Source of the DNA: Escherichia coli
Lineage (GTDB): Bacteria > Pseudomonadota > Gammaproteobacteria > Enterobacterales > Enterobacteriaceae
Length of the DNA stretch: 64,000 nt
Strand: one strand, 5' to 3'
Assembly: GCA_902500055.1 (NCBI GenBank)
Contig: GCA_902500055.1_4131.1
This document shows positions 18,168 through 52,305 of this stretch, one piece after another (position 1 is the stretch's first letter; every line of letters begins with the position of its first letter). Made by a program: the position numbers and the translations under genes. The notes beneath the pieces are model-generated. The model saw only the letters and a list, made by a program, of their open reading frames with translations. It was not told the DNA's origin and did no database searches.

Positions 18168-18175
18168 TATAAATA
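18168..18175 (+). promoter_or_regulatory. T4-type late promoter TATAAATA (plus strand)
   Basis: Exact TATAAATA ~35 nt upstream of ATG 18210 in a divergent intergenic region. Confidence 0.5.
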
Positions 18176-23355: not shown

Positions 23356-24393
23356 TTATAACGATCTGTAAATTTGGATTAGAAGATTTTTATCAAACAT
23401 TGGTGAATCAATTTCCATAATTTGCTGTAAAACTATCTCATCAACTGATTCAGTACTTTCAAAACTAACACCATCTTCGATTAATTCTGAAATACTTTGC
23501 TTGCTAGTTACAACATTAAACTCCCTAATGTTATAAAGTTTAGTAAATGTATCACGAATAAAACTAATCTCATCAGTTGTTATTGATATATCAACTTGAA
23601 CTTTTGATATTGTGTTATCTTGTAGATAATAGCTTGGATCAGTCAACAATTCAGAAAGTGTGAATGTTCTATATTTTGGTGCATTATCCCATGACTTGAA
23701 AATAGGTTCTTTACCATGTTCAAGAATCATCACACCTCTTGCATCATCCCATGTATCGGAAAAATTATGTGGAAAACAATTACCAGTATAAACTACACGA
23801 GTTCCTTTTGAAGTTGTTTTTGACTGCCTTTTATGAAAATGCCCACTAAAAACATACTCACAACCACCAAAAGAACCTTCTGTTTCTTTTCCATGATCAG
23901 GCATTTCTACCATCTTGTTAAGCAAGTAACCTGGTAACTCTAAGTGACCAAAAACATACTTACTTTTTAGTTGAGGTAACAACTTATATTCATCTTCAAT
24001 CATAAATGGAATGAAAGTACAATCATCAAATGTTGTAATTTCATTAATGAATTCTATATTTTCATAAACTTGAGCCATATTGATACTTGTTATATCACGT
24101 TTGTTTTTATGATACATATCATGGTTGCCTACTAAAAAATATACTTTTTCAAAATTATCATTTAATAATTGAAGAATTTGTAAACCATAGTTTAGTGTTT
24201 GGATATTGATATTACTTCTATTATGAAAATAATCTCCCATAAAAACACAAACTTTGATATTATTTTTTTTAGCTACATCAATCATGAATTTAATGAAGTT
24301 TAAACAATCTTCATTGTGTTGCTTGCTGTTATTCTTTAAACCTAAGTGAATATCAGTGAATGTAATTGCTTTATCAAACAGAGCCATCTTCAT
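23356..24393 (-). CDS. 47: recombination endonuclease subunit gp47 (SbcD/Mre11-like metallophosphatase)
   Basis: Calcineurin-like motifs FTDIHLG, FMGDYFH, VGNHD, FGHLE, FSGHFH. Start chosen at ATG 24393 (MKMALFDK...) with AAAGGA upstream; track start 24405 is TTG. Confidence 0.85.
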   Translation of the reverse strand: MKMALFDKAITFTDIHLGLKNNSKQHNEDCLNFIKFMIDVAKKNNIKVCVFMGDYFHNRSNINIQTLNYGLQILQLLNDNFEKVYFLVGNHDMYHKNKRDITSINMAQVYENIEFINEITTFDDCTFIPFMIEDEYKLLPQLKSKYVFGHLELPGYLLNKMVEMPDHGKETEGSFGGCEYVFSGHFHKRQSKTTSKGTRVVYTGNCFPHNFSDTWDDARGVMILEHGKEPIFKSWDNAPKYRTFTLSELLTDPSYYLQDNTISKVQVDISITTDEISFIRDTFTKLYNIREFNVVTSKQSISELIEDGVSFESTESVDEIVLQQIMEIDSPMFDKNLLIQIYRSL

Positions 24394-25213
24394 TTTTCCT
24401 TTCAATCATGTTCAATTCAATTTCAATTTGACGTGTATGTGATGGCGTAAAGCCATGCATTTCAAGTAAATCATCACGTATATTTCGAACATTTTTCTCA
24501 CTATTCAATATAGAACGAAAACTATTGTTTACGAATGATGTATAGTAAGAGAAAGGATTTAGCTGAACTGCTGGTTTATCTTTTTTATAAAGAATGCTCT
24601 CTTTAAAGAGAAGTGCGTTTTTAACTAATTGTATTCTTGCATCACCCATCATTTCATCTAAGTATGTATAGTTTCTGTAATTAGATTTGTGTGAGATTTC
24701 CTCTGCAAGTTTAATGAACATCTTCCCAAGTTCATTTGTAATTTTACCATGAACAGTACTGAATTCACCAGTTTCAAGGTCGCCTTTCCAGTGAGAACGA
24801 CAAACTTCATAGAGAATACCTTCATTATCTACAATATAATGCTTGAATGGTTCAAAGTTAACTCTAGTATCTGGTGGAATATGTTCATCTGTAATAACAC
24901 GAATAACAACTTCATCAATTGGAACGTCAGTGATAACTAAATTGTGTTCATCTGCATATTCTTTAGCTTTTTTAGCACTCATATTTTCCTTTTCACGAAT
25001 ACTATCAAGCATTTCATTGTTCAGTCGTTTAATTCGGGCTGCCTTAGCTTTTTCTAGTAACTCAGCAGTAATTTCTGACTCATGAAAAACAATATAATCA
25101 TACATACTATATGATTTGTCTAATAACCAGCAATATGAAATTTTACTTTTTTGTATTTCACGCAGTAAATCAGCATTATTGAGATACTTTTTACGCTTTG
25201 GTCTATTTGTCAT
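24374..25213 (-). CDS. 55: putative late-transcription sigma factor (gp55-like)
   Basis: N-terminus KYLNNADLLREIQKSK resembles T4 gp55 KYNYVNNKELLQAIIDWK; adjacent to gene 47 as in T4; late TATAAATA promoters present. The protein is longer (279 aa) than T4 gp55. Confidence 0.5.
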   Translation of the reverse strand: MTNRPKRKKYLNNADLLREIQKSKISYCWLLDKSYSMYDYIVFHESEITAELLEKAKAARIKRLNNEMLDSIREKENMSAKKAKEYADEHNLVITDVPIDEVVIRVITDEHIPPDTRVNFEPFKHYIVDNEGILYEVCRSHWKGDLETGEFSTVHGKITNELGKMFIKLAEEISHKSNYRNYTYLDEMMGDARIQLVKNALLFKESILYKKDKPAVQLNPFSYYTSFVNNSFRSILNSEKNVRNIRDDLLEMHGFTPSHTRQIEIELNMIERKNEDGSV

Positions 25214-25301
25214 TGTATTTTACTCTCCATGTTTAAATCCAATAGGTACAATCCTTGTACCATCAATGTTATTATAGCACCAAAAAGCAGTTTGTCCCAC
25301 G

Positions 25302-32333: not shown

Positions 32334-33041
32334 ATGAAAAGATATTATGGTTTCATTTATCAATGGGAAGATTGTTCCAATGGTATAAAATATATAGGTT
32401 CTCATTATGGAACAACTGATGACAAGTACGTGTCTTCTAATATTATAGTTAATCGCATTTATAAGAGTAGACCCCTTGATTTATCAAGAGTCGTTTTGGA
32501 ATATATTATTGTTAATGATAAGAATTTTTTATTGGAAAGAGAACAAAAATACTTAGATTTAATACTTCCGTCTGAATTGTATACTAGTACCAATAGAAAA
32601 AACAAAACCGTAAAATATTACAACATGAAAAAGAATGCATGTGGTGGTAACGGTGGTATTGGAAGTAATGGTATATTGAAAAATAAAATAAAATATTTTA
32701 ATAAAAATACTTTAGAACAGAAATTCTTTCATTATAATGATGACATATCGGATGATTGGATTAAAGGTGTACCCCCATCTAAGGTTAGTTGTTCAGGTAG
32801 TATTTGGTATCTAAATATACATACTGGAGAAAATAAAAGATTTAGACATAACCCTGGTATAGATTGGATTGAAGGAAAACGCAATACTTCAACAACACCA
32901 AAAAAGGTAAGCACACCATATGGGATTTTCGAAAGTGCATCTGAATGTAGTAGACAAACTGGAATAAAACAAGGAACTGTATCATTTAGGTGTCGTTCCA
33001 AATCAACTAATATGACAAATTGGTTTTATATAGAGGAATAA
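32334..33041 (+). CDS. GIY-YIG homing endonuclease (Seg-like)
   Basis: N-terminal YYGFIYQWEDCSNGIKYIGSHYG is a GIY-YIG motif; basic C-terminal half resembles the DNA-binding region of Seg endonucleases; inserted between gp25-like and gp6-like genes. Confidence 0.6.
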   Translation: MKRYYGFIYQWEDCSNGIKYIGSHYGTTDDKYVSSNIIVNRIYKSRPLDLSRVVLEYIIVNDKNFLLEREQKYLDLILPSELYTSTNRKNKTVKYYNMKKNACGGNGGIGSNGILKNKIKYFNKNTLEQKFFHYNDDISDDWIKGVPPSKVSCSGSIWYLNIHTGENKRFRHNPGIDWIEGKRNTSTTPKKVSTPYGIFESASECSRQTGIKQGTVSFRCRSKSTNMTNWFYIEE

Positions 33042-33044
33042 ATT

Positions 33045-36000
33045 ATGTCACAACAAAAAAGACAGTCTAATTTATATAGTGGTGAGGATTGGACCCAGGT
33101 ATATGAAAGTTTTTATAAGATCAATCTCACTGCATTTGATTTTGACACTATTCGTCAAAGTATGATTGATTATCTACGTGCAACTTACCCAGATTCATTT
33201 AACGACTGGATCGAAAACGATCAGTTTATTTTTATTTTAGATACGATTTCTATGCTAGGACAGAACTTGGCATTTCGTATGGATTTGAACACGCGTGAAA
33301 ACTTTTTAGATACTGCAACTCGTCGTGCGTCAGTACTAAAACTAGCTAAAATGATTTCTTACTCACCACGCCGCTCATATCCAGGTCGTGCAGTTGCTAA
33401 ATTAACCGAAATTAAAACAAACCAAGATGTTCGTAATAGTTTTAATGAATCATTAAAAGATAAAATCATTCGTTGGAATGACCCGATGGATGCTAACTGG
33501 TATGAAAACTTTATTCTAGTAATGAACAGTTCATTTGTCAGTACTAACCAATTTGGTAATCCAGTCAAGCGTATTGATGTTAATGGTGTCTCCCGCCAAC
33601 TATATCGAATGAACACCATCCCAATGACAGCACCCAGTATTCCATTTGTTGCAACTGTCAATGGTGAATCTATGACATTTGAAGTAGTGAATCCTGATAT
33701 TACGTCTGTTGGTGTTGAAGAACGACATCCAGAACCACAAGAGCAAAAATATATTGTTTATCAAAATGATGGTAATGGATTTAGCTCACCAAATACTGGG
33801 TTTTTTGTATATTTCGTACAAGGTACATTGACATATCAAGATTATCAATATGCTATCCGTGAAGAGAACCGTATACAAGATATTAACGTTGATAATATCA
33901 ACGAAACTGATGTATGGGTTCAAGAAATAAATGAAGATGGTATTGTTCGTACCAAATGGACAAAAGTTCCATCAATGGAAAGTATTGCATATAACACTGT
34001 TAATCGTCAATTAAAAACAATTTTTGCTGTTACTACTCGTGATAAAGACCAAATAACAATTAAGTACCCAGACTCAAGAAGTGGTGTTGTTCCCCGTGGG
34101 ACGTTCCGTGTATGGTATCGTGTTAGTAATGGTAAAACATATAACATTAAAACTTCTGAAATTCAAAATAAAAGCGTAAAATATACATATCGTACAAAAA
34201 CACAGTCAAGTTATGAATCTAGTACATTGGATATACGTTTTTCATTACAATATGAGTCCGACCGTGCACAAAGTGCAGAGACTATTGAGCAGATTAAAGC
34301 ACGTGCACCACAAATGTACTATACACAAAACCGTTTTGTCAATGGTGAAGATTATAATATTGCACCACTTAGTTTAGGCAATACTGTACTTAAATCTAAA
34401 GCTATTAATAGAATTTATAGTGGACAATCAAGATTTATTGATATTAATGATCCTACTGGTAAGTATCAAAATACCGATGTTTTTAGTGATGATGGTGCAT
34501 TATATCAAGAAAACACACAATTTAATAGATCATTATTGCTACCAACTACAAAAACAAATGCTAGTATTGTTATTGACAATATTCAACCATTGATTGGTGA
34601 AAATGCGGTAATACAACGTTACCAAGCGTTTCCATCAAATACAATTGGTATTGAAATACAACAAGCATGGACTCCGGTATACAATTCAAATTATACAACT
34701 AACACATATGGTAGAATTTTGGGTTCATCTGGTACAGTTTATGGTTCATATCAGGTTGGTACTCTAATTAAATTTTCTAATTCTGGAACTACTATATGGG
34801 CTAGTGTAGTTAGTGTATTGGATAATGGATTTTATGTACTGAGTACATCGGTTCCAAGTGGAATGCAAGCCATAGAGTACATTTTACCATATAGAACTAG
34901 ATTTAACTCGGTTGAAGTTCAAGCAATTTCTGCTATGCTAGATAAAAAAACTGATTTTGTTATTGTACATGACAAAGAAACGACATCATGGGTTCCTATT
35001 GAAGTAAGTACCAATGATGATACTATTGTATATAATGGAAATGAAGTTTTAATTATAATTAATGTAAAATATACAGCAGAAACTTGGGAATTTGATGCTA
35101 ACGGTATTGAATATATTTTTGTGGGTGGAGAAAAAGTAAGATTTTACTTTGTATCATCTAAAAAAATTACTGATATTAGTACTGGTACAGTTCAAAGTGA
35201 TAAGATTGAAATTTTATCATCTAACACTACTAGTAGTAGTAATTCAGGATTGACAAGTAATATAGATTTTCAAATTTATGACACAATTCAACAAGAGAAT
35301 GGCTATCTAGATGGTTCTCGTGTTATTGTTACATCTAGGAAAGTAGATAGTAATGGTATACCATTGGAACCAAACCAATTTAAAGAAATTGTTCCTACTT
35401 GGACTGGAACCGATGCATTAAAATATGGTGGTATTTTGGTATTTCAGGAAAATAGTGATTTCACTATATCAGTACTGTCGTTACCAAATGATACCTTCAC
35501 ACTTCTTGATTCATCGTGGTCTTATACAATGGAACAAGCCTTGGCAGAGCCGAATGCATATAAAAGAACTGAATTTGTTAGAAATAACGCAATTCGTTCA
35601 ACCACATTGAGTGGATTATATAGTAAAGGTTCTGGATTTTTAGTTGGTTTTAACTATGATGGTAAATATTATTTTATTGAACAAACAGTTGGTAATAACA
35701 ATGATCGTTTAGGACAGCTAATTAGTAATTTAACTTATTCCGATGATACTGGCACTGTTAGTCCTGAATTGGCTTTTTATCGTGCAATTAATAACATGGG
35801 AACTAATGCTGACGAGAATCAGAAGCTAGATTATTATGGATACAAAGATGTTACTTCACAGTACACTGTTAAAACTAATGCACGTACTAGTATAGACTTC
35901 CATTGGAAACACTATGCACCTGACGACAATCGCATTGATCCTAGTAGAACAAACTTAATTGATATGTATGTATTAACCAATTCATATAAAACTGAAGTTG

Positions 36001-36537: not shown

Positions 36538-36585
36538 ATATCATAAATAAATCAAATGAATGAACGAATTATATGGAGTCCAAAA

Positions 36586-39500
36586 ATGACTAATAATTTT
36601 AAGTTTCAACCTACACAGATGGCTGAAGCAGTACAGAAGAAGCTTTTTATTAAAAGATTGCCTGAGTGGATGCAAGGCTTAGAAGATATTCAAAAAGTCA
36701 GTGATGATGTTATTCAACAATGGTTTAATCCGGCTGAAAACGAATTAGTTGACGGCTATATTGGTGATATGGGTTCTCCTGCCGCTGCTGGTAATATCTT
36801 CTTACATGAAAGTACTGTAGCACGTCAACTTTATCAGTTGTCCACTGCTTACGTCTCAAAAAATGATGATTCGACAATTCGTTCAATTCAATTTTATGAT
36901 GATCTAGTTGGATACATGAATCATTATGGAGCACTAACCGATAATGAAAGCCGTTTGTTCAACGGTAAGTTTTATGCATGGACTCCAGCTATTAACCCAA
37001 ATAAAATGAACAATTTTAGCTCATATCTTTGGGATACTAAAAACTCTTATAATATTACTTCACCTGATTACATTGTAATGGAACGTGGAGCACTTAATGG
37101 TAATACATGGTCACTACAAAACTTTTGGTATACTTTAGGTGAAACATTAGAAGATGGCTCAATATTAACTGAAGAATTAATGCAAGATTCACGTTTTATT
37201 CGTGCACGTGCACCAATTATTGAATATAATAAAAATATTGAGCTAATTAACTACGGTACAAAATTCCGTGGAACTGTTGATCTGTTCTCTGATATTATTA
37301 AACCTGAAGATATCGTTCAAAAAGATATTAATAGTGGTATACGTATTGATGGTATTATTCCGCAAGATGGAATGCGTATTCTATTCACCAGTATTGGTAA
37401 CAATGGTGAAAACAATAGAATTTATAATGTATATGTGAAAAAAATGCAAGATGGTACTCGTGTTTATGGTTTAGCACTAGATCCAGAAGAAGAAACCGAA
37501 TCACGCCCAAGTGGTGAACCACAAGATGGTGATGTTGTTCTAATCACTAAAGGTAATGAGTATGGTAATAGTTCTATGTACTGGAATGGATCTTTGTGGG
37601 TTCGTGCACAATCAAAAACTAGTGTTAACGTATTCCCTAAATTCCAACTTTATGATCGTAATGGTATCAAACTTGACAACAGTACTACATATCCATCAAG
37701 TAACTTTAAAGGTTCAGAGTTGTTTGGTTTTAAAATAAATTACAACTATGCAACTGATAGTGTATATGGATATAACATTGAACTTGGTGATTATAATTAT
37801 TACATTTATGAAAACTTTTTACAATCCCAACGTTATACCTATGACCATCTTGGAAAAGAAGTTGAAATTGATGGTTTATACTATTATAACATTATTGATG
37901 AAAATAATGAAATGAATCTTCAAACCGATTGGGTTCGTTCAGAAGAGTACTCTAAACAATTTGTAAAACAAACTCCACAAGTCAAACGTACTGATATGTA
38001 TCGTGTATTCAGTACTGTTTATGATATGGAAGTTTTTAAAGAACCAGTTGATGGTATGTATGCATATGTTATTGAAGTTGATAGAACCTATCAGTACTAT
38101 AAAGCAGACCGCGAAACTTATCTAGACTGGCATCCAATCACTGGTGATGGTGTTCAGATTGTAAAATATGACCATACATTCGAATTGGCACAAAAAGTTT
38201 TAGATAATGATTCTGATATTATTGAAGTTGTGGTTGATGGTGTTGATGTGTCCAAATATACCAAAAATGTTTCAAAAGGTCAAGTACAAAGCATCACTCT
38301 AGATAGTACTGTAGATTTGGATGAAGATTCTGTTATTCAAATCAGAACTTATAGCAGTACTGTAACTCCTAATAAAGAATTAGGTGCATATGAAGTTCCA
38401 ATCAACCTACAAAATAACCCATATAATTCTAATATTATATACATTAACCAAGGTGACTACACTTTACATTTTCAGGATATTATTCAAAAGAACATTACAC
38501 GTGGTTCTTCTGATGATTTCAATGACTATGAAGAACGTTTGGCTAAAGGATTGGTTAATAATGGCGTAGGTACTAAAATTATCCAAAATGAAGCATCTAT
38601 GCTTCCATTGATGGCACATACTGCAAATGAAGATATTGATTTGTTTGAAGCAACTATGTTTATGCAATCTGAATATTTTAGATTCATTAATAAATTTAAT
38701 ACACAAATGCTTCGTATGTATGATGAAAATCCATCAGACTTTTTACAAAATAGTGCTGCAAACATTGTTGATGCAATTTTAACTACTATTAATATGGGAC
38801 GTGATAGTTCATTCCCATTCTATTATGATAATGTTGGAAGTACTTCTGGATTCATTCGTGCATTTATACCACCAACACCACAGTTCTTAGGTATTCTTCA
38901 AGCATATGTACCAGAAAAAGCGACATTCCTCACTGCTGGTAGTAAACCAAGCTGTTATAACATCAGTCATACTGGTATTATTTCCAAAGCATACCGTGTT
39001 ATCAATGGTGTTGATAAAATGGATGATGTTGTATATGAATTAGAAAATAGAATTTTTAATAGTATTGATAATAAATTCAAAGATGTTGATTACGTACCAG
39101 TATTGAATAGTGATGACCTTTTCCCTACACCATATTTCACTAAAACTGAATATAGTGCTGAAGAGAAACAAACATTATTACTACGTGGATACATTAACTT
39201 CACCGCAACTAATGGTATCAGTAATAGTACACATGATTATGATCCTAACAATTGGAGAACTTGGAACTATACTGGCACTTATTATGTAGTTAATGGTCAA
39301 AGTACTGAAATTCCTGCTCGTGGTTCATGGCGTGCAATTTATACTGACCAATATGGTACATATCGCCCTGCAACACATCCGTGGGAAATGTTTGGCTTTT
39401 CACAGCGTCCAACTTGGTGGAACCAAGAATATGAACCAACTGCTGTTCAAGTTGGTGAGCGTGATAGTGATGTGGTATATGTATATGAAGCACTTGTTAT

Positions 39501-42500
39501 GAATGAACAAGGAGATTTAGTTCCTAGTGGTCTATGGGATATCGACGGCACTATCGGAGATAGTAGTACTGGTACTATTTTGTCTGGTGATCGCCGTGGA
39601 CAGTATGACAAATATAAAAGATTTGGTGTACAGCCATTTAAAATCACAAAAACTGGTAATAAAACATCTTCCGGTATTGATATTTGTGTTGTTGAATATA
39701 TTGCACCTGAAATTTTAGGTTTAGTGTCTGGTTCTTTAAATCATAGAGCAGAACCTTGGGCATATGGTGACATGGGTGACATGGAATTTACATACATGAA
39801 CACTACATTGTTTGCATATGACCAAATGCTACTTTTGTATAAAGCTAAACCTGCACAATTTGCTAACTATTTTTGGGATACCCGAAATGACAATTTAAAA
39901 GAAGTATTCACTGATGGTTCACAATTCCTTTATGGTGATACACGTAAGCGTATTAATTTTGATAAAAACACTGTAGTTCATGGTGAAAATAACACAAGAA
40001 CAATTGGTTATCAAATGTTTGTTAGTGATTATTTGATGTATCAAAATAAAAACATTACAACCAAATATGGGGATGTAGTTCGTTCTTCTTATATAAATGT
40101 TGGTCATAAAATTGGTGGTTTTACTAAAGCAGATCAGCTAACATTCAATGCTAAATCATTTGGTCTTATTTCACAAGAAAACCAAACTATTGGTCTTGTT
40201 CGCTCGAATAATATTCGTGATGAACAAATGAGTGCTATCAAAATTACTTGGAATGGTAGTGCATATCAGATTGATGGATATGATTTAGTTGGTGCTAAAT
40301 TCAAATATAAACTGCCAGTGAAAAATGGTAGAAAAGTAACTCTTAAATTAGAAAACCGCAATGTTGTTCATTATAACGAATGGAAATCTGAAGCTTCCAT
40401 TGAATATGGTAAAGTTTTTAATAGTTACCAAGAAGTTTATACTTTTATTTGTGGTTATGGTGAATATCTTAAAGAACATGGCTGGATTTTTGAAGATGTA
40501 AATGATAGTGGTGCTCAACAAGATTGGAACACTATTGCTAAAGATTTTGTGATCTGGAGTCAGAATTCTCTGGTAACGGGTGAATTTATTTCTTGTACAC
40601 CAAGTGCAGCAAATGCTAAATTTGGTGCAGACTTTGGTTCAGTTCAATCTATTACACAAAATAACGGTGGTGTGTGGTCATTACTTGATGATAACAACCA
40701 AGGTATACGTCAATATGAAATTGAAACTTCTCGTATTGGTAATATCTTTACTGTTAGAACTTTAGAATCCAATAAACGTATAGCATTAATTCGTTTAAGT
40801 TTGTGTTCATATGAACATGCTGTTATTTTTGATGATAAGACTATTTTTGGTGATTATATCTATCAGCCAACTTATGGTTCTATTCAAGAATTAATTAAAA
40901 TGTATGGCTACATTACTGGTTCATGGACTGGTCGTCTACAAGCTCCTGGATTTATTATCTTGGAAGCTGGAACACTACCATCATTTGAAAAATTAGTGTC
41001 GGATTTCCAACATTATTATGATAGTGAAACTCCAGTAAGTGATGTACAATTACAAGAGTTGTCAAACCATTTGATTGGTTATCAATCTCGTGATTATCTA
41101 CAGCGTATGATTAGTAGTGATGTTAGTCGTGTTGATTTCTATAAAGGATTCATTCATGATAAAGGTACTAACCAAGTTTTAGAACGTGTACTTCGTGTTT
41201 CTAAATCATATGACACAGATGAATATAAAGCATTACAAGAATGGGCATTTAAAATTGGTACATATGGTAATATTGATGGTAAGAAAAACCTTCAATTTAA
41301 ACTAATCAATGACCAATTTAAACAACAACCACAAATGGTATCTTTTGATGTAAACGCTACTTCAAATGGAAATGGAAACAATATTGTATACTTCGGCGAA
41401 CAAGGTAAAGATCCTCGTTGGATTACACGTCCAAATGGTAAGTTCTCATTCCCGATGCGTAGTGGAAGAAGTGAAAACATTCAACTTCCAGATATTGGTC
41501 CAGTAACATTGGATGAAGTATCTTACACTACAAAAGATTTCAGTACTGCATATAATGACCGTATAACTTACACTAATGGTAAAGGTGAAAACCCTGAATC
41601 TGTTTGGATGTTTAAAGACGGAAATGGTTTATGGAATATTTTTGAATTAGTTGATACTAATGTGCAAATGGTTTCTATAACACCTATTGAAAATACCGAT
41701 GTGTATGCTGAACAATTTTGTAAAGTAACTTTAACTGATAATGTGCCACTTGAAGATGGTGATTATTATTATTTTGTTGATGAAACTAACTTTATGCCAG
41801 ATACTTTAACAGTAGAAAGTCAATATTATACTGCTGGTTCTGATCCTAAAGTTATGGTAGTTCCATTTGACACTTCTATTGATATTGAATTTACTGATCC
41901 AGATACACGTCCACGTTTGTATCGTTATGTATCACGTTTTGCCAGTGCAGAAGAGCGTCAAGCATATATTGACAAAAAGTATAGTTACAAAGCACCACAA
42001 AGTACTTTTTTTGACCGTCCAACTACATATGATGAACGTACTAACATTACTGCATTATATCTAAATGTGTATGACCCTATCAATGGGGTTATTCCTGGTG
42101 CAGCAATGCAAAACGTAACTTATACGTCACCAATAGACCCAGCACAATATAATAGCAATGGTGAATTAATTCAGGCTTGGGGTGCTGATAAAGTTGGTCA
42201 AGTATGGTGGAACACTAGCACTGCATTTTATTTGGATTATACTCGTGCAATTTATGACGCAGACGGTAATGTTGACATTGATGCAACCAATGAATACAAA
42301 CGTTACAACTGGGGTCGTTTATTACCACATAGTACAATTGATGTGTTAGAGTGGGTTTGTTCACCAGTTGAGCCATATAACTGGGACAAATACTGTAAAG
42401 ATGTTGCTAAGAAAAACAAAAATAATACTATGTATCTACCAAGTGGAACTGCACTTGAAGATAATTATAGTACATTTTTGGAATATGATAGTTCAACTGA

Positions 42501-45500
42501 TAGTTATGTGACAAAATACTATTTCTGGGTACGTGATACAATTTATGTACCACCACTACATACCAGAACAAAATCATGTACTGACATTGCTCGTATTATT
42601 AAAGATCCAACACAGCTAAACATTCCTTGGTTCGCTCCAATCAATGAAAACTCGTTTATTCTTAGTAATATGCAATTTAAAGTGAATGATGATACCAGTA
42701 TTTTAACTGTTTCTTATTACATGGATAGTACTGAAGTTGTTAAACATGACCAGTATCAACTATGTAAAGAAGGTGACAGCTATAACTTTAACCCACTAAT
42801 TTGGGATTCAATGTGGAACTCACTAATTGGTCAAGAAACAACTGAATCAGGTTCTGTGATTAATTTATTATATCCAGATGTTGATAACGGTTTAGGTTCA
42901 AACAAAACTTGGTTCCAAAATGTTATAGAAGCTCGTAGAAACTTTGTAGAAAGTGCTAATAATTATTATAGGTCACAAAACATAACCACTAATAGTGTTG
43001 TTATGAAAGATGTGTTTAATGTTAAAACCACTGAAGTTAACCCTAATGAAGTTTCTTTCCGTGTCTTGTCTTACAATAATGAATTAGTTATTGCAGTTGA
43101 AAGTGATAAATTTAAAGAAAATGACGCTGTTATTTTAAGTACTAGTGGATATCTACCAAATCCATTAACTTCTAGTGCTGTTTATTTTATTCACTTCGAC
43201 GAAAATGGATATATTCAGTTAATGAATAGTCCAGCAAACGCGGGTAGTGTTGTTACTATAACGTTAGAGAACAAAGGTGAGGGACAACATAAAATGATTA
43301 AGCAATCTGATTATGTTGAATCACTAGGAACTTCATTAGACATGACTCAGTACTGGTCATATGCTGATTGGTATGATGTTGGGTATGATAGTAACACGAC
43401 TTATACACAAGAGTCAAGCTTAGAAGATGCTAATACTAAAAACTACCAAGTTGGCGATATTATCAGAGTTACCGATAGTGAAAACATTTGGACATTGTAT
43501 ATTAAATCACAATCACGCGATTCAATTTATTGGAAAGCGATTGGTCGTGAAAACAGTACAGTTGAACTCAATGATATGCTTTACGCAGATTATAGTGTTC
43601 ATAATGATAATGGTTCACTAAGCAATCGTGAAATCAACGTTCGTAAAGCACTAGCTTTACTCAAAAATTCTTTCGATTTACATCAAAGCGAAATTGTTTT
43701 TGATATGGTCAAATATGTACATGTTGAACAAAGTGTTGTGGATTGGGTATTTAAAACATCATATATCTATATTGTTGGTTTGGAACAATCATTAGTTCAA
43801 AACTATTCAAACGATAATTTGATTAATCAAATTGTTGAATATTTTGAAGAAGTTAAACCTTATAGAACTAAAATTCGTTCACAAATAGAGCAAAAGACAT
43901 CTGATGATGATTTAATAAAAGGTCTATGTAATGATTTAGATCCTAATGGATATATTTTCGTTGATGGTTCTTGGATCAAAACTGAAAAAGATATTTGGGA
44001 TTATGAGTACGCTCAATTTAATGAAATTACCCAAAAATGGGAACAGGTAGGTTCACTACCAAGTGATTTCGTTACACCAAATAGAAGATTCCAAGAAATT
44101 GATATTATTATGCATTATGATAATATTCAGTGTAAACCAAATGAAGATTTGGCAAGCATAAATGAATTAGTAAGTGTTAATAACAAATATCAATCCAATG
44201 AAAAGGATGCTGTTAGTAACTATGAATTACAACGTTATATATATTCTTTCCCAGAATATAGTGAAGAAACTTTCGATCTTCTTATTGCTTATCAAATGCA
44301 AATCTACTATCCAGAATTGGATGTAACACTAGGAACAGCATATGGCGTTAACCAGTGGTATAAAGACCATGCGGAAGATTTAGAAGCAACTGATGAATTC
44401 ACTGCTACATTGGAACGTGTTTATAAAGAATCAACGCATAACGATATGTTTACTGACCTTAGACAATATGTTCAGTATAACACATTGGCAAACCGTTTGA
44501 AACTTTATAAAGATATAAGTGATGAGAAAATTCACGATGAAGTTGGATGTGGATTTAGTGGACTTACTTATAATGACAATCCTAGTACTAGACTTCCATT
44601 AGGCTTTTCTTCTAGTAATGATTATAACTATGGATATTTTGAAATAAGCAGTGAATTGTATCAAAAATACATTTCATTAATTAAAGATAAAAATCCTGAC
44701 GCATCAGACTATGAAGTAAAAGTTAAACTTGAAGTTGAGTATGGTGTATATGTTTATCGTTATGATGAAGTAGGTGGTGATACCCGTTTCTATACTGATG
44801 CTATTCACGTATTAGCAGGTATGAGAGGGTTATTCGACAAAGACGCTACTGATAAGTACGAAAAAGCTGAAGAGATTCTTAGTAAGACCCCAATTGATAT
44901 CTATGCAATTACAATGATTCCACGAAAATATGTTTACTTAAATGTTAACGGTGTATATCAAAGTATACCTGATGAACAAAGTATTGATGATTTCATGGAA
45001 GATTATTTTATCACAAATGGTGAAATGGTTGAACTAGCTGAAATAAATCTTGATGATTTACCACTAGATCAAAATAATCCAATGTATTCTGATTATCAAT
45101 ATATACTTGATAGTATTACTGAAGCTAAGTACTTCAATGATATGAATGCATTTGATAACCTAGCATTAGAATCTCAAACTTCTTCAATAAAATGGGAAGT
45201 TAAAGATGATGAGGTTGATCCTTATATTGTGGATATATCTGACATAAACCCTTCTGGGCGTGATGTTGGTCAAATTAGATTTACAGTTGATGGATATGGG
45301 TTTGACAATGTATCTCTTGTACAATTACGTGATAACAGCAGATATCAAACTGAAGGTATGGCAATTATCAATCCATATAAACATACAGAAGCAATTGTTA
45401 GTATTCCTTCATATGCTAAGATTGAAAATGATATTAATAAAACAACATCGAAGTTTGATGAAAAATATTTCTATCGTGTGAGATCTATTAATAGCTTAAC

Positions 45501-46557
45501 TGAAGCAGAAATAGTTGACAATGACCTATCTGATGGTGATAAGGTGATGATTTTCACTCCTGATGGTGAAGATTTTGTGAGATATCAAAATCACACATGG
45601 GAAACAATCTTGCGTGTATCTAACATCAAAAACAATACAACTCCGATCCTATTCACTGTAAGAAATACAGGTAAGGAAACGATTGAATTGATTGATGAGA
45701 GTACTGGTGCAGTTCTCCGTTATGATAACATCACTCTTGCACAACAAAATGAGCCAGTACAGCCTCTAGCATTGAACATTGTTCGTGTTAGAACATTTGC
45801 TGACCCTGAATTTGTCAAGAATGGTATTAAATTGTATGAACAAAATAGAAATTACACCATTGATGTAATTAATTATGATGTTTTCTACGATACTACTTTA
45901 AATGGTGGTAAGTACAATGACGGAATAACACCAGATGACGTTGACGTTTGGATAATCTCTAATGAAATATTTGATGTTGATGGAATTACTATCGATAACG
46001 GTTATAACTTACCAATTACGGGTGCGGGAGTTCTTAGTGAATTGGCAAGAACTAAAATGACTGATAGTTTAGAAATCAACGTTATCGAATATGATTCAAG
46101 TGTTATTCAACCGTTTAGAAATAATGAAGGGATATGGGTTTATGGATTCCCAATGGTTGACGGTATGTATATCGGTGTTGTTGGTGGTACTGTTACTAAC
46201 ATCACAACCATTAGTGAAGAAAATACAACCTATGTTTCTCAACCTAAATCAATAAGTCCTTATAGTATTAGAAATAATGTTTTATCCGGTTCAGCCGCAA
46301 ACATGAATGATATTATATCGATTGGATATGAAAAAGTTGAAGTTAGAAATGCAAATAATTTACTCCGTGGTGTAATGTATAGTGCAGAACATGATTTTAA
46401 ACTTAATACTACATATTCTTTCAATGGAATTAATTTAGGTAATTATGATATGTTAAAACGTTACACACAAAATAGTTACACTATAGATCTTTCAGTATAC
46501 ACTGATAGTCTACAAGTTAGTGGTAATGATATTAAAAATATATTATTAGTTAAGTAA
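36586..46557 (+). CDS. giant virion structural protein (~3,320 aa), positional analogue of baseplate gp7
   Basis: Uninterrupted ~10-kb reading frame in the baseplate module; start set to ATG 36586 (GGAG 8 nt upstream) rather than track start 36556, which lacks an RBS. Non-repetitive, Asn/Tyr/Asp/Thr-rich. No catalytic motif recognised by eye. Confidence 0.6.
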   Translation: MTNNFKFQPTQMAEAVQKKLFIKRLPEWMQGLEDIQKVSDDVIQQWFNPAENELVDGYIGDMGSPAAAGNIFLHESTVARQLYQLSTAYVSKNDDSTIRSIQFYDDLVGYMNHYGALTDNESRLFNGKFYAWTPAINPNKMNNFSSYLWDTKNSYNITSPDYIVMERGALNGNTWSLQNFWYTLGETLEDGSILTEELMQDSRFIRARAPIIEYNKNIELINYGTKFRGTVDLFSDIIKPEDIVQKDINSGIRIDGIIPQDGMRILFTSIGNNGENNRIYNVYVKKMQDGTRVYGLALDPEEETESRPSGEPQDGDVVLITKGNEYGNSSMYWNGSLWVRAQSKTSVNVFPKFQLYDRNGIKLDNSTTYPSSNFKGSELFGFKINYNYATDSVYGYNIELGDYNYYIYENFLQSQRYTYDHLGKEVEIDGLYYYNIIDENNEMNLQTDWVRSEEYSKQFVKQTPQVKRTDMYRVFSTVYDMEVFKEPVDGMYAYVIEVDRTYQYYKADRETYLDWHPITGDGVQIVKYDHTFELAQKVLDNDSDIIEVVVDGVDVSKYTKNVSKGQVQSITLDSTVDLDEDSVIQIRTYSSTVTPNKELGAYEVPINLQNNPYNSNIIYINQGDYTLHFQDIIQKNITRGSSDDFNDYEERLAKGLVNNGVGTKIIQNEASMLPLMAHTANEDIDLFEATMFMQSEYFRFINKFNTQMLRMYDENPSDFLQNSAANIVDAILTTINMGRDSSFPFYYDNVGSTSGFIRAFIPPTPQFLGILQAYVPEKATFLTAGSKPSCYNISHTGIISKAYRVINGVDKMDDVVYELENRIFNSIDNKFKDVDYVPVLNSDDLFPTPYFTKTEYSAEEKQTLLLRGYINFTATNGISNSTHDYDPNNWRTWNYTGTYYVVNGQSTEIPARGSWRAIYTDQYGTYRPATHPWEMFGFSQRPTWWNQEYEPTAVQVGERDSDVVYVYEALVMNEQGDLVPSGLWDIDGTIGDSSTGTILSGDRRGQYDKYKRFGVQPFKITKTGNKTSSGIDICVVEYIAPEILGLVSGSLNHRAEPWAYGDMGDMEFTYMNTTLFAYDQMLLLYKAKPAQFANYFWDTRNDNLKEVFTDGSQFLYGDTRKRINFDKNTVVHGENNTRTIGYQMFVSDYLMYQNKNITTKYGDVVRSSYINVGHKIGGFTKADQLTFNAKSFGLISQENQTIGLVRSNNIRDEQMSAIKITWNGSAYQIDGYDLVGAKFKYKLPVKNGRKVTLKLENRNVVHYNEWKSEASIEYGKVFNSYQEVYTFICGYGEYLKEHGWIFEDVNDSGAQQDWNTIAKDFVIWSQNSLVTGEFISCTPSAANAKFGADFGSVQSITQNNGGVWSLLDDNNQGIRQYEIETSRIGNIFTVRTLESNKRIALIRLSLCSYEHAVIFDDKTIFGDYIYQPTYGSIQELIKMYGYITGSWTGRLQAPGFIILEAGTLPSFEKLVSDFQHYYDSETPVSDVQLQELSNHLIGYQSRDYLQRMISSDVSRVDFYKGFIHDKGTNQVLERVLRVSKSYDTDEYKALQEWAFKIGTYGNIDGKKNLQFKLINDQFKQQPQMVSFDVNATSNGNGNNIVYFGEQGKDPRWITRPNGKFSFPMRSGRSENIQLPDIGPVTLDEVSYTTKDFSTAYNDRITYTNGKGENPESVWMFKDGNGLWNIFELVDTNVQMVSITPIENTDVYAEQFCKVTLTDNVPLEDGDYYYFVDETNFMPDTLTVESQYYTAGSDPKVMVVPFDTSIDIEFTDPDTRPRLYRYVSRFASAEERQAYIDKKYSYKAPQSTFFDRPTTYDERTNITALYLNVYDPINGVIPGAAMQNVTYTSPIDPAQYNSNGELIQAWGADKVGQVWWNTSTAFYLDYTRAIYDADGNVDIDATNEYKRYNWGRLLPHSTIDVLEWVCSPVEPYNWDKYCKDVAKKNKNNTMYLPSGTALEDNYSTFLEYDSSTDSYVTKYYFWVRDTIYVPPLHTRTKSCTDIARIIKDPTQLNIPWFAPINENSFILSNMQFKVNDDTSILTVSYYMDSTEVVKHDQYQLCKEGDSYNFNPLIWDSMWNSLIGQETTESGSVINLLYPDVDNGLGSNKTWFQNVIEARRNFVESANNYYRSQNITTNSVVMKDVFNVKTTEVNPNEVSFRVLSYNNELVIAVESDKFKENDAVILSTSGYLPNPLTSSAVYFIHFDENGYIQLMNSPANAGSVVTITLENKGEGQHKMIKQSDYVESLGTSLDMTQYWSYADWYDVGYDSNTTYTQESSLEDANTKNYQVGDIIRVTDSENIWTLYIKSQSRDSIYWKAIGRENSTVELNDMLYADYSVHNDNGSLSNREINVRKALALLKNSFDLHQSEIVFDMVKYVHVEQSVVDWVFKTSYIYIVGLEQSLVQNYSNDNLINQIVEYFEEVKPYRTKIRSQIEQKTSDDDLIKGLCNDLDPNGYIFVDGSWIKTEKDIWDYEYAQFNEITQKWEQVGSLPSDFVTPNRRFQEIDIIMHYDNIQCKPNEDLASINELVSVNNKYQSNEKDAVSNYELQRYIYSFPEYSEETFDLLIAYQMQIYYPELDVTLGTAYGVNQWYKDHAEDLEATDEFTATLERVYKESTHNDMFTDLRQYVQYNTLANRLKLYKDISDEKIHDEVGCGFSGLTYNDNPSTRLPLGFSSSNDYNYGYFEISSELYQKYISLIKDKNPDASDYEVKVKLEVEYGVYVYRYDEVGGDTRFYTDAIHVLAGMRGLFDKDATDKYEKAEEILSKTPIDIYAITMIPRKYVYLNVNGVYQSIPDEQSIDDFMEDYFITNGEMVELAEINLDDLPLDQNNPMYSDYQYILDSITEAKYFNDMNAFDNLALESQTSSIKWEVKDDEVDPYIVDISDINPSGRDVGQIRFTVDGYGFDNVSLVQLRDNSRYQTEGMAIINPYKHTEAIVSIPSYAKIENDINKTTSKFDEKYFYRVRSINSLTEAEIVDNDLSDGDKVMIFTPDGEDFVRYQNHTWETILRVSNIKNNTTPILFTVRNTGKETIELIDESTGAVLRYDNITLAQQNEPVQPLALNIVRVRTFADPEFVKNGIKLYEQNRNYTIDVINYDVFYDTTLNGGKYNDGITPDDVDVWIISNEIFDVDGITIDNGYNLPITGAGVLSELARTKMTDSLEINVIEYDSSVIQPFRNNEGIWVYGFPMVDGMYIGVVGGTVTNITTISEENTTYVSQPKSISPYSIRNNVLSGSAANMNDIISIGYEKVEVRNANNLLRGVMYSAEHDFKLNTTYSFNGINLGNYDMLKRYTQNSYTIDLSVYTDSLQVSGNDIKNILLVK

Positions 46558-46565
46558 TAAAAAAA

Positions 46566-46597
46566 GGAGAGCATTATGCTCTCCTTTTCTTTTTTTA
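46566..46597. terminator. bidirectional terminator (GGAGAGCAT/ATGCTCTCC, A-run upstream, T-run downstream)
   Basis: Perfect hairpin between convergent giant structural gene (+) and ClpA-like gene (-). Confidence 0.65.
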
Positions 46598-48883
46598 TAC
46601 TAGTGCTTTATCTACAGCTTTGGTACGTTTCGGCTTAATACCGATTTTACCATCAATAACATCAAATGTAATGTTACCACCATTCACAAGTGAACCACAC
46701 AACATTTCTTTAGCTAGTGGTACACGAATGTTTTGTTCAATGGTACGTTTCATTGGACGTGCACCCATGCCAACTTTTACCCCATTTTTCGCAAGCCATT
46801 CACGTGCAGCTTTTGTTAATGTAACTTTAACATTACGGTCTTTGACTTGTTCATTCAAACCACCCATGAACTTATCAATGATGCTGTCAATAGCTTCACT
46901 GCTTAGGTCTTTAAACGTAACGATACTATCAATACGGTTAATAAACTCTGGTGGCAAGAATGCTTTAATTGCCTTGTCCTGTGCAGTGTCACTACCGCTC
47001 ATACCAATGCTACGCTTTGTTGAATCAGCCGCACCAAGGTTTGTAGTCATAATAACAGTTACGTTATTAAAATATACAGTTTTACCTTGAGAACCAGTCA
47101 GACGACCTTCATCCAAAACCTGTAGGAAGGTTAGTAGTACTTTACGATCTGCTTTTTCAATTTCATCAAGTAACAGTACTGCATTAGGGAACTGCTCAAT
47201 TTTATCCAACAGTAAACCGTTACCAGAATCATGACCAACATAACCTGGAGGTGAACCAATTAGTTTAGAAACAGTATGTTCTTGAGAAAATTCTGACATA
47301 TCAAAGCGAATCAGTTCCGCACCAGTTGCATCTGCTAATGCTTTGGTAATTTCTGTTTTACCAGTACCAGATGGTCCAACAAACATAAATGCACCCTGAA
47401 CACTAGATTTGTCACGCAGTCCTGCACGAGCTACCATCACGTTATCAACTAATTTTTGAATAGCTTCCTCTTGACCGTATACACGTGAGCGTAGTGCATC
47501 TGGTAGATTACGCATACGATCACTTTCAGTACATGCAACCACGTTGATATCCAAATTGGCAATACCAGCAACAACTTCTTGAATCAAATTGGCAGTAATA
47601 AGCTTACTATTGTTGTCACGTGAACGAACTTTTGCAGCGGCAGCGTCCATTAGATCAATTGCTTTATCTGGGAAGTGCTTATTCTTCAGGAATTTATCAC
47701 TGAGAGAAATTACAGCATCCATTGCATCAGTTGTGAACTCAACATTATGGAATTTTTCATAAGTTGGTTTCAAACCATTAACAATTGCACGAGTTTCATC
47801 AATTGACGGCTCAACTACATCAATTTTCATAAAACGACGAGTTAATGCACTATCTTTCTCGATATTTTTACGATATTCATCATATGTTGTTGCACCAATT
47901 ACACGAATCTCACCACGTGAAAGTGCTGGCTTAAGCATATTGCTCATGTCCATAGAACCATTACTTGCGGAACCAGCCCCAACCATAATATGAATTTCAT
48001 CAATGAAAACAATAGTATTTTCACGTTTCTTTAGTTCTTTTAGCAAATTGTCGATGCGTTCTTCAAACTCACCACGATACTTAGTACCAGCAGTCAATGC
48101 ACCAACATTTAGTGAAAGAATTTCAACGTCTTTCAGGTGTTCAGGTACGTTGCCGTCAGCAATAGCTTGTGCAAGACCGTCGATGATTTGTGTTTTACCT
48201 ACACCAGCTTCACCAGTAAGAATAGCATTCTTTTTGGTTTTGCGAGCAAGAGTCTCAATCAATGCAGACAATTCTTTCTGGCGACCAATCATAGGATCTA
48301 GTTTGCCTTCTTTTGCAAGAGCAGTTAGATTCGTTGTATAGTCTTCCAAACCTTTTTGTTTAGATGATTGCTGCTGTTGGGCCACTTTTTTATCTCCAAT
48401 CGGTTCGTCATTAATACTTTGTAAGTTGATACCCTTATCAAGTGACTCAACGTGTTTTTGCAATGCACGTGCAGCTTCAGTACAGCTAACACCTTCTTCT
48501 TTCAACGCAGCTTCTAGTGCTGTGTTAGGGAAAGACAGACATTCGAATAGAACAAAATATGCATCAATCGAAAAATCATCACTTTTTAGTTGTTCAATAA
48601 CTGATTTTTTAGAAAGCTCATGTACAACGCGATTCACTAGAAGTGAAGTGCGATTCGCGTCTTCATCTTTAACACTTTTTGGTGCATGTGGAACTGTTGT
48701 ATTTTTAAGATAGTTCATCAGGCGGTTGTGCAGTTTGTCTGCATCAATGTTCATATCTTCAAATACGTTCTTGATGCTATCAATAGTCAGTACTGTGGCA
48801 CTTACGTGGTCAATAGTCAAGAATGTATGACCTAGAGATGTTGCCAGTTCGTCGCTTTTTTTGAACAATTGAGTAAGATTCAT
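46595..48883 (-). CDS. clpA: ClpA-like double-ring AAA+ unfoldase (Clp/Hsp100 family)
   Basis: Two nucleotide-binding domains: Walker [10 protein letters not shown] and Walker B VFIDEIH; second Walker [10 protein letters not shown] and Walker [10 protein letters not shown]; KRSIGM loop and [12 protein letters not shown]-terminus closely parallel E. coli ClpA (RKSIGL ClpP-docking loop, AMGARPMARVI); no long ClpB-type middle domain. Start set to ATG 48883 with AGGAGA upstream (track start 48904 is GTG). Confidence 0.85.
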
Positions 48884-48993
48884 GTATTCTCCTATGTGAT
48901 TCACGTCACTCTAATTAATAAACATTATATCACATTCTTACGGTTTGTCTACAAGGTAAATAAAGATATACCCGATTTATTTTGGAGACAAAC

Positions 48994-51840: not shown

Positions 51841-52305
51841 ATGAATGAAGCGGTTGGTGCTATATTTTTATCAAAAAGTACTGGACATATGATGTTAAAC
51901 TTGCGTTCTGAAAGAAGTACCTATTCTAACAACTGGGCATTTGTTGGTGGAAAGCTTGAACATAACGAAACACCACTACAAGGTCTGATGAGAGAAATTA
52001 AAGAAGAGTTGGGCAACTCAATACCTAACATTATTGATATTATACCGTTTGATGTATTTTGTACAAAAAATGGTAAATTTAAATATTATTCATTTGTTAT
52101 TGTAGTTGAGAATGAATTTGTACCAACTTTAAATCATGAAAGCTCTGGTTATGCTTGGGTTAGAATTGGTTCTTGGCCTAAACCATTACACCCTGGTGCT
52201 AAAAATACTTTACTTAACACAAACTTAATGAAAGATTTTTACTCACTATGGGAAAGTATACGTGAAGGTACACAGTTTGTCAACAGTTTACCATATAGAT
52301 ATTAA
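51841..52305 (+). CDS. Nudix hydrolase
   Basis: Nudix box GGKLEHNETPLQGLMREIKEELG (Gx5Ex7REUxEExGU). Confidence 0.8.
   Translation: MNEAVGAIFLSKSTGHMMLNLRSERSTYSNNWAFVGGKLEHNETPLQGLMREIKEELGNSIPNIIDIIPFDVFCTKNGKFKYYSFVIVVENEFVPTLNHESSGYAWVRIGSWPKPLHPGAKNTLLNTNLMKDFYSLWESIREGTQFVNSLPYRY

Follow-up and report, generated by a model that had tools for sequence, protein, structure and literature searches.

A ClpA-like gene inverted among the structural genes of Asteriusvirus jumbo phages, and its probable place in a phage-encoded Clp protease

Genes for ClpA-like proteins have been recorded in jumbo phages before. The product is annotated as 'ClpA-like protein' in Escherichia phage 121Q (gp581), as 'ATP-dependent Clp protease' in phAPEC6 (gp246c) and in similar terms elsewhere, an annotation of this kind being present in 121Q, phAPEC6, G17, RaK2, GAP32 and CBB. 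The conservation of the gene has already been discussed (PMC6102473, PMC7824862), a translocase or assembly role has been proposed for the protein (PMC7824862), and for the multi-gene Clp set of phage Atu_ph07 a possible use in assembly, replication or aggregate clearance was considered (PMC6102473). Here we describe the copy found in a 64,000-nucleotide stretch of DNA (the window) from an Escherichia coli assembly (GCA_902500055.1, contig GCA_902500055.1_4131.1). The clpA-like coding sequence occupies positions 46595-48883 on the minus strand, encodes 762 amino acids followed by a stop codon, and is the equivalent of 121Q gp581 and phAPEC6 gp246c; the assignment draws on the list of open reading frames, Pfam, NCBIfam, ClpA structures and PHROG 4871. 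An earlier reading made from the sequence alone (the sequence-only reading) overstated the novelty of the gene, which is already annotated as ClpA-like, belongs to PHROG 4871 and is discussed in the two papers cited above (PMC6102473, PMC7824862). The jumbo-phage clade concerned is well sampled, and this is one of its known, catalogued core genes. Three points are new here: clpA and clpP share a conserved promoter of early type, the genes for ClpA, ClpP and a ClpS-like protein are inherited together, and the ClpP-docking tripeptide varies. Together they are a refinement and not a new kind of system. We consider it rather probable that the clpA-like protein is the unfoldase of a phage-encoded, pre-late ClpAP(S) protease that degrades selected host or phage proteins.

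The window DNA is 99.2-99.3% identical to Escherichia phages 121Q, PBECO4, phAPEC6, G17, Sharanji, JP4 and others, which belong to the Asteriusvirus jumbo myoviruses, with a size of about 350 kb. At the protein level, identity to the annotated ClpA-like proteins is 99.6-99.7% (99.7% for 121Q, PBECO4 and phAPEC6), and homologues at 61-75% identity are present in RaK2, K64-1, 7t3/Munch, EJP2, CBB, GAP32, XbC2 and fHe-Yen9-04. A ClpA homologue occurs in 196 phage records. No T4-type phage is among them, which agrees with the earlier remark that T4 has no such gene, and the Escherichia phages (33 of 33) are jumbo phages of about 350 kb.

The best explanation of the similarity searches and motif alignments is that the reading frame would encode a functional ClpA-type hexameric, double-ring AAA+ unfoldase. 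Pfam matches to AAA_2 (2e-49), AAA (1e-29), AAA_lid_9, ClpB_D2-small and Clp_N occur in the same order as in ClpA, so that all four families expected by the sequence-only reading (Clp_N, AAA, AAA_2 and ClpB_D2-small) were matched. The best NCBIfam model is that of ClpA, TIGR02639 (E=1e-226), which aligns in a single stretch (residues 3-740 on model positions 5-732), and the top solved structures are those of E. coli ClpA (1KSF, 6W1Z; E=1e-180), again in a single alignment (residues 17-741 against 20-734). The phage 'ATP-dependent protease' family PHROG 4871 gives E=0 and 1035.6 bits over residues 2-756 (profile positions 11-761 of 764). In a global alignment the protein is 44% identical to E. 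coli K-12 ClpA, with 29% in the N-domain, 51.5% in D1 and 45% in D2. Whereas the ClpA model matches in one stretch, the models of ClpB, ClpV, ClpK and ClpG and the structures of ClpC and ClpB match the phage protein only as two stretches, because it lacks the coiled-coil middle (M) domain; in the profile and structure alignments the M-domain insertion relative to ClpA is absent. Pfam, TIGR02639, the ClpA structures and the motif alignment thus bear out the earlier description of a full-length two-ring Clp ATPase with both pairs of Walker A and B motifs. A search with PADLOC for membership of a defence or anti-defence family gave generic AAA_2-domain matches only (DolB, PDC-M37B) and thus no evidence of such membership.

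The two ATPase modules are given here with minus-strand coordinates. D1 (residues 179-445, 47549-48349; Pfam AAA and AAA_lid_9, 51.5% identical to the E. coli module) contains Walker A GEAGVGKT (48191-48214), the pore-1 loop KYRG (48071-48082), Walker B VFIDEIH (47990-48010) and the arginine fingers in LTRRF (47831-47845), all of which are invariant in the alignment of seven phages with E. coli. D2 (residues 446-745, 46649-47548; Pfam AAA_2 and ClpB_D2-small, 45% identical) carries Walker A GPSGTGKT (47354-47377), the pore-1 loop GYVG (47234-47245), Walker B LLLDEIEKA (47150-47176), the arginine finger in FINRID (46928-46945) and sensor-2 GARPM (46751-46765), and these are conserved with both E. 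coli ClpA and the phage relatives. The N-domain (residues 1-150, 48434-48883) is strongly conserved within the phage clade. Its first Clp_N repeat is recognisable: Pfam places it at residues 11-59, above the gathering score, it reaches 21.7-24.6 bits (cut-off 20.7) in all seven clade members, and the hhalign match to E. coli ClpA (96.6%) is confined to residues 14-79, paired with 17-81 of ClpA. A second Clp_N repeat was not detected by Pfam or hhalign in the latter half of the domain, which is clade-specific. An AlphaFold2 model of the N-domain made from the single sequence had a predicted local distance difference test score (pLDDT) of 53, too poor for fold comparison, and a homologue search with the N-domain alone returned two fragments only, with no further loop sequences. 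A Gln/Lys-rich linker (residues 151-178, 48350-48433) joins the N-domain to D1, with a column conservation of 0.50 as against 0.77 overall. Like the D1-D2 junction and the very end of the C-terminal tail, this linker belongs to the segments that vary most in the alignment.

At the position where ClpA has its IGL loop for docking on ClpP, the phage protein has the loop SIGMS (residues 625-629, 46997-47011, with IGM at 47000-47008). SIGMS is aligned on E. coli ClpA S616-I617-G618-L619, and the 10-residue segment around it aligns residue by residue on ClpA RKSIGLIHQD with equal loop length. The loop at the docking position that had been noticed from the sequence alone is therefore confirmed by residue-by-residue alignment on SIGLI as far as its position and length are concerned; the tripeptide itself is non-canonical and variable in the clade, as discussed below. 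The docking loop as the least conserved part of the protein was ruled out, since the D1-D2 junction (residues 421-432) and two other segments score lower.

Candidate partners of the unfoldase are encoded elsewhere in the phage genome. These genes were read from the whole genome of 121Q, which is 99% identical to the window, and are given in 121Q numbering. A true ClpP with an intact catalytic triad is, to judge from its sequence, encoded by gp464 (214364-215059). Its match to Pfam CLP_protease (PF00574) has an E-value of 4.2e-41 and covers profile positions 2-179 of 182. The protein reaches 155 bits with the cellular ClpP subfamily as compared to 51 bits with the ClpP-related head-maturation proteases, matches cellular ClpP structures at E of about 1e-36, and is 35% identical to E. 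coli ClpP. Its triad S113, H139 and D188 aligns on E. coli S97, H122 and D171 and is kept in RaK2, 7t3, EJP2 and GAP32. The capsid protease of 121Q is a separate, T4 gp21-like protein, gp601. The second candidate, gp48 (34461-35006), matches Pfam ClpS (PF02617) with 24.7 bits against a cut-off of 23. Its gene is flanked by an IF3-like gene and by a KTSC-domain gene noted as 'DnaJ-like' (gp48-gp49, 34461-35623).

When E. coli ClpP, ClpS, ClpX and ClpA were compared by phmmer with all reading frames of 121Q, only gp464, gp48 and gp581 were found, and no ClpX or ClpB was detected by phmmer over the 343 kb. Within the window the same method gave no match of any open reading frame to ClpP or ClpS, only the clpA-like gene, in agreement with the sequence-only reading; by the 121Q coordinates the clpP and ClpS-like genes lie at least about 15 kb beyond the window ends. 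Two further 121Q genes carry suggestive names in GenBank that are not well supported, and they were rejected as confident Clp components. The 'ClpP-like' gp473 stays below the Pfam and NCBIfam thresholds, has no PDB match and is not matched by E. coli ClpP in phmmer, and the 'ClpYQ-like' gp475 (23356-23952 of its 121Q segment) has only a faint HslV match, is also below the Pfam and NCBIfam thresholds and has no PDB match. We note that the N-terminus of gp473 (22420-23028 of the same segment) resembles a signal peptide, and that the protein contains ITSPGGDFDAG, a weak ClpP/S49-like motif.

ClpA, ClpP and the ClpS-like protein are co-inherited across the Rak2-like phages, their genes being found in one and the same set of phage genomes. 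By tblastn, the numbers of phage records with ClpA, ClpP and ClpS-like genes are 33, 34 and 34 for Escherichia, 11, 10 and 10 for Klebsiella, 10, 8 and 8 for Salmonella, and 8, 8 and 8 for Erwinia. All three are also found in phages of Yersinia, Pectobacterium, Cronobacter and Xanthomonas, and Serratia appears in the lists for ClpP and the ClpS-like gene only.

The region upstream of clpA points to expression by the host transcription machinery. The gene starts with ATG at 48883, preceded at a distance of 4 nucleotides by the Shine-Dalgarno sequence GGAGA (48888-48892, minus strand), for which the relatives have an equivalent AGGAG; an alternative, longer start at GTG 48904, seven codons upstream, has no Shine-Dalgarno sequence. 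The 110-nucleotide divergent intergenic region (48884-48993) contains a sigma-70-type promoter with an extended -10 element on the minus strand (48924-48951), consisting of TAGACA, a 16-nucleotide spacer and TGnTATAAT, with the -10 element ending 37 nucleotides before the ATG. It scored 11 of 12 plus the TG in a consensus scan. In six of six distant relatives (RaK2, Munch, EJP2, CBB, GAP32 and XbC2) the equivalent place holds an extended -10 of the form TGnTATAAT together with a -35-like hexamer, although the remaining spacer has diverged, and the promoter is thus conserved in seven phages of several genera. The promoter of clpP (gp464) has the same architecture: TGGACA, a 16-nucleotide spacer and TGnTATAAT, about 35 nucleotides before the ATG.

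The 343 kb of 121Q were scanned for TGnTATAAT preceded by a -35 hexamer with 4 or more of 6 positions matching. There were 47 sites on the strand with most of the non-structural genes and one on the other, whereas extrapolation from shuffles of the window puts the expected number at roughly 7 for the two strands combined. Sites of this class avoid the structural clusters of 121Q, the clpA site being the only one in the structural block of 280-320 kb. In the window by itself the count of 3, compared to 1.3 in shuffles, is not significant; the case for the clpA promoter is based on the distribution of such sites over the whole genome and on the fact that seven phages have kept this one. The window contains a second extended -10 of the form TGnTATAAT (25271-25276, minus strand, with the -35 hexamer GGGACA), about 60 nucleotides upstream of the minus-strand reading frame 24374-25213, which encodes a late sigma factor like T4 gp55 (121Q gp591). 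A promoter of a pre-late class is what one would expect before such a gene, since the late sigma factor is needed before late transcription.

The late genes seem to be marked in another way. The exact T4 late-promoter motif TATAAATA is present in six copies in the window, at 18168, 25302 and 31341 on the plus strand and at 907, 11033 and 12242 on the minus strand, and is rarer than chance, since shuffles contain about 16.6 and the window only 6. All copies but one are situated 20-60 nucleotides upstream of structural genes, these five genes being those for the baseplate hub, a gp590-like virion protein, the tail lysozyme, the major capsid protein and the scaffold; the copy at 907 was not counted among the five, its downstream gene not being assigned. 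This suggests that T4-like late promoters are used in this jumbo phage. An exact scan of the window found no such motif upstream of clpA. The gene may well form its own pre-late transcription unit, driven by host sigma-70, inside a late block. A relative, PA5oct, depends on host RNA polymerase and has TTGAC/TATAAT promoters (PMC7318152).

At its other end, the unit is closed by a bidirectional intrinsic terminator (46562-46588), in which a GC-rich stem of 12 bp is flanked by an A-run and a T-run. The hairpin sits between the stop codons of clpA and of the converging gene for a 3333-residue protein and is common to both; it has a folding energy of -17.3 kcal/mol on one strand and -20.0 kcal/mol on the other, is annotated in G17 (by ARNold) and in Munch, and is kept in seven phages. 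The sequence-only reading had placed bidirectional terminators on both flanks of clpA. This is correct for the 3' end only, since a terminator scan found none on the 5' side (48884-48993), where the divergent promoter region lies.

The phage ClpA is not packaged in virions. Mass spectrometry of phAPEC6 virions detected gp245 and gp248 and not ClpA gp246c, and in CBB virions CBB_233, 234, 236 and 237 were detected and ClpA CBB_235 was not.

From these elements the following course of events can be envisaged. ClpA gp581, ClpP gp464 and the divergent ClpS-like gp48 would constitute one phage Clp system, inherited vertically in the Rak2-like phages. Host sigma-70 RNA polymerase would read clpA from the extended -10 promoter, either ahead of the late structural genes or without regard to them, and transcription would end at the hairpin shared with the converging giant gene. 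ClpA hexamers would take substrates by means of the clade-specific N-domain, possibly with help of the ClpS-like protein, and the KYRG and GYVG pore loops would unfold and thread them at the expense of ATP. The IGM loop would dock on a ClpP tetradecamer, most likely that of the phage, with host ClpP as a possible alternative. In this way certain proteins of the host or of the phage would be degraded selectively, in an ATP-dependent manner, in the course of infection. As to the substrates, we can only speculate: truncated or misfolded products of the very long genes, host regulators and defence proteins are candidates.

A number of observations weigh against such a phage-encoded protease and have to be taken into account. 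The score on TIGR02639 (754.4 bits) is below the curated equivalog cut-off of 993.15, and that on PRK11034 is 655.7 with a cut-off of 1350; by its sequence, the protein would be classed as a divergent viral member of the ClpA family and not as a curated equivalog. The ClpP-docking tripeptide is defined by the motif [LIV]-G-[FL], and the IGM found here is non-canonical, with Met instead of Leu or Phe as the third residue and the first hydrophobic residue kept. In the relatives the tripeptide is IGV (RaK2), MNM (Munch, 7t3), IGG (EJP2), LGM (CBB, GAP32) or MGM (XbC2), and EJP2 and Munch/7t3 retain ClpP despite the altered sequence. Conservation of the loop is 0.68, as compared to 0.83 for D2. 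With a variable tripeptide and a less conserved loop, docking on ClpP is therefore not assured in every member of the clade. The ClpS-like candidate is also problematic. Its match to ClpS structures is weak (E only about 0.2), and it has an N-terminal extension of 65 residues and a C-terminal one of 30, both absent from bacterial ClpS. At the positions which we take to form the N-degron pocket of E. coli ClpS (N34, D35, D36, T38, M40, H66) it has D, D, P, T, A and N, so that four of six are changed. It appears to be a very divergent ClpS-like protein, a candidate adaptor. Furthermore, the clpA, clpP and ClpS-like genes do not form an operon but are 84-264 kb apart, with clpP about 84 kb from clpA in 121Q. 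Mass spectrometry of CBB virions yielded one peptide of ClpP (CBB_104), a possible hint that ClpP has a part in morphogenesis. In the literature we found no experimental work on phage-encoded ClpA or ClpP and no transcriptome for Asteriusvirus, Alcyoneusvirus or Mimasvirus, and the paper on RNA sequencing of PA5oct does not mention Clp. Expression timing, the identity of the ClpP partner and the substrates are for that reason inferred.

The interface between the two proteins can be considered from the side of ClpP as well. At several positions of the docking pocket of E. coli ClpP (including T32, Y60, F82 and L114), the phage proteins differ: T32 is replaced by D and L114 by G in five of five phages, Y60 by T or V, and the F82 position is variable (S, Y, C or N in the five phages compared). 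The phage ClpPs (GAP32, EJP2, 7t3 and RaK2 loci) also have in common a C-terminal extension of about 18 residues, NE.G..LV.RRGGVEEWV, which E. coli ClpP does not have. The changes in pocket and loop are compatible with a phage ClpA-ClpP pair that has diverged together, and would equally allow relaxed docking in some lineages; the comparison covers five sequences. On such sequence comparisons, a partnership of the phage ClpA with ClpP may be inferred. A bolder version would be an orthogonal, self-contained ClpAP(S), in which a phage ClpA-ClpP pair with a co-diverged interface (the variable loop facing a pocket remodelled by Y60T, L114G and a variable F82 position, and the RRGGVEEWV tail) is insulated from host ClpA, ClpX and ClpP, and in which a ClpS-like protein with an altered N-degron pocket retargets degradation to host or anti-phage defence proteins in the pre-late stage. 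We put this forward as a tentative idea, which in this complete form is rather doubtful.

The sequence-only reading proposed that the phage ClpA hijacks host ClpP. In that case it would compete with host ClpA and ClpX and redirect proteolysis to host or defence proteins, and no phage peptidase would be needed. IGM can be regarded as a conservative variant of IGL, at the same aligned position and in a loop of the same length within a D2 that is 45% identical to that of E. coli; host ClpP is available from the onset of infection, and the predicted early-type promoter would fit a takeover role. The idea rested, however, on no phage ClpP being seen, because gp464 and gp48 lie beyond the window, and it is no longer needed now that the phage genome is found to carry both. 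Moreover, the phage ClpP is intact, is co-inherited with ClpA in every lineage checked and has the same promoter type, and some phages with the same enterobacterial hosts have a tripeptide that has drifted to IGG or MNM, which is hard to square with docking in a fixed pocket. We consider exclusive reliance on host ClpP unlikely; mixed use of phage and host ClpP is possible.

Another possibility is that the protein acts independently of ClpP, as a chaperone or disassembly factor for the 3333-residue virion protein or for other neighbouring tail or baseplate components. E. coli ClpA without ClpP acts as a chaperone and remodels P1 RepA, and the relaxed docking tripeptide suggests that docking on ClpP is dispensable in some members of the clade. 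All seven phages have the gene in the same place, with the giant gene on one side and tail genes on the other, which fits the earlier suggestion that the unfoldase serves giant proteins in assembly, and a translocase or assembly role has been proposed (PMC7824862). That suggestion does not fit well with an independent, opposite-strand transcription unit that has a promoter of the sigma-70 type instead of the late type, nor with the absence of the protein from two virion proteomes and its co-inheritance with ClpP and a ClpS-like gene. Adjacency on opposite strands is also weak evidence of function in genomes where function and position are loosely coupled, and we judge a purely ClpP-independent role to be quite improbable. 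It is hardly credible that we are dealing with a host gene in decay, or one captured only recently, without a role in the phage. Nothing beyond its cellular ancestry speaks for this, whereas the frame is intact, the catalytic motifs are kept across phages that are 61-75% identical, synteny, promoter and terminator are fixed, and the base composition has ameliorated. The phage-encoded ClpAP(S) protease thus remains the explanation that we prefer.

Base composition and gene order both indicate a long residence in the phage lineage. The GC content of the clpA-like gene is 38.6%, whereas E. coli clpA has 52.6% and the window as a whole 34.5%; the gene is ancient in the lineage and its GC content has ameliorated to phage level. 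Strands and synteny confirm that, as the sequence-only reading had it, clpA is inverted between a giant structural gene and further structural genes: it is opposite in strand both to the gene for the 3333-residue protein (36556-46557) and to the structural genes from 48994 on. The order NUDIX, sheath-completion protein, 500-residue structural protein, inverted clpA and giant gene is the same in RaK2, Munch, EJP2, CBB, GAP32 and XbC2. Because the order is identical in these six relatives, the inversion is ancient and not a recent insertion.

Some of the neighbouring genes deserve mention in their own right. The giant gene (36556-46557, plus strand) encodes a protein of 3333 residues and 382 kDa that was identified as a virion protein by mass spectrometry in phAPEC6 (gp245) and CBB (CBB_236); it has about 3340 residues in all relatives, and in the EJP2 record it is labelled 'D-alanyl-D-alanine carboxypeptidase'. 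The MutT/NUDIX hydrolase gene (51841-52305, plus strand) is the last of the tail-gene operon, an odd enzymatic passenger among structural genes whose position is kept in six of six distant relatives. An HNH endonuclease reading frame (32334-33041, plus strand), situated between gp25-like and gp6-like baseplate genes, corresponds to gp584 in the 121Q record, where it is noted as group I intron-associated, and looks like a mobile element within the baseplate operon.

As a finding, the gene is ordinary and will not surprise a specialist, yet it points to a tractable viral protease system. It appears that all parts of an ATP-dependent protease, namely unfoldase, peptidase and adaptor-like protein, come with these phages, and that their expression is started by host RNA polymerase before that of the structural genes. 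If it is true that this protease selectively breaks down proteins of the host or of its defences, or disposes of faulty products in a phage with genes for proteins of 3000 residues, it would be a virus-encoded machine for proteostasis or takeover. It might also provide an orthogonal degradation module for synthetic biology, and it bears on the phage-therapy candidates phAPEC6, JP4, Sharanji and EJP2.

In comparison with known systems, the phage protein is closest in design to E. coli ClpA (TIGR02639; 1KSF, 6W1Z), with which it shares the N-domain, D1, D2 and D2-small regions without a middle domain, the Walker A and B motifs, the KYRG and GYVG pore-1 loops, the arginine fingers and sensor-2, and a loop of equal length at the position of IGL. 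It differs from E. coli ClpA in an N-domain that is only 29% identical and has an unrecognisable second repeat, in IGM instead of IGL, in the Gln/Lys-rich linker, and in having no Met at the position of the internal start Met169. It is, moreover, encoded by a virus, alongside a ClpP of non-enterobacterial type (35% identical to E. coli ClpP). ClpB/Hsp104 and ClpC/ClpE also have two AAA+ rings and Clp_N, and their profiles score 460-630 bits, but ClpB/Hsp104 have a coiled-coil middle domain and no ClpP-docking loop, whereas the phage protein has a loop at the docking position. The ClpA genes of Rak2-like phages (PHROG 4871: 121Q gp581, phAPEC6 gp246c, RaK2 ORF069, GAP32_229, CBB_235) are the same gene, with the same synteny, promoter and terminator. 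Agrobacterium phage Atu_ph07, with ClpX, ClpA, ClpB, ClpP and ClpS, and the PA5oct-like phages combine ClpA with ClpP and ClpS, as is the case here; the Clp set of Asteriusvirus is smaller than that of Atu_ph07, and its ClpP is 33-40% identical to the ClpPs of Atu_ph07 and PA5oct.

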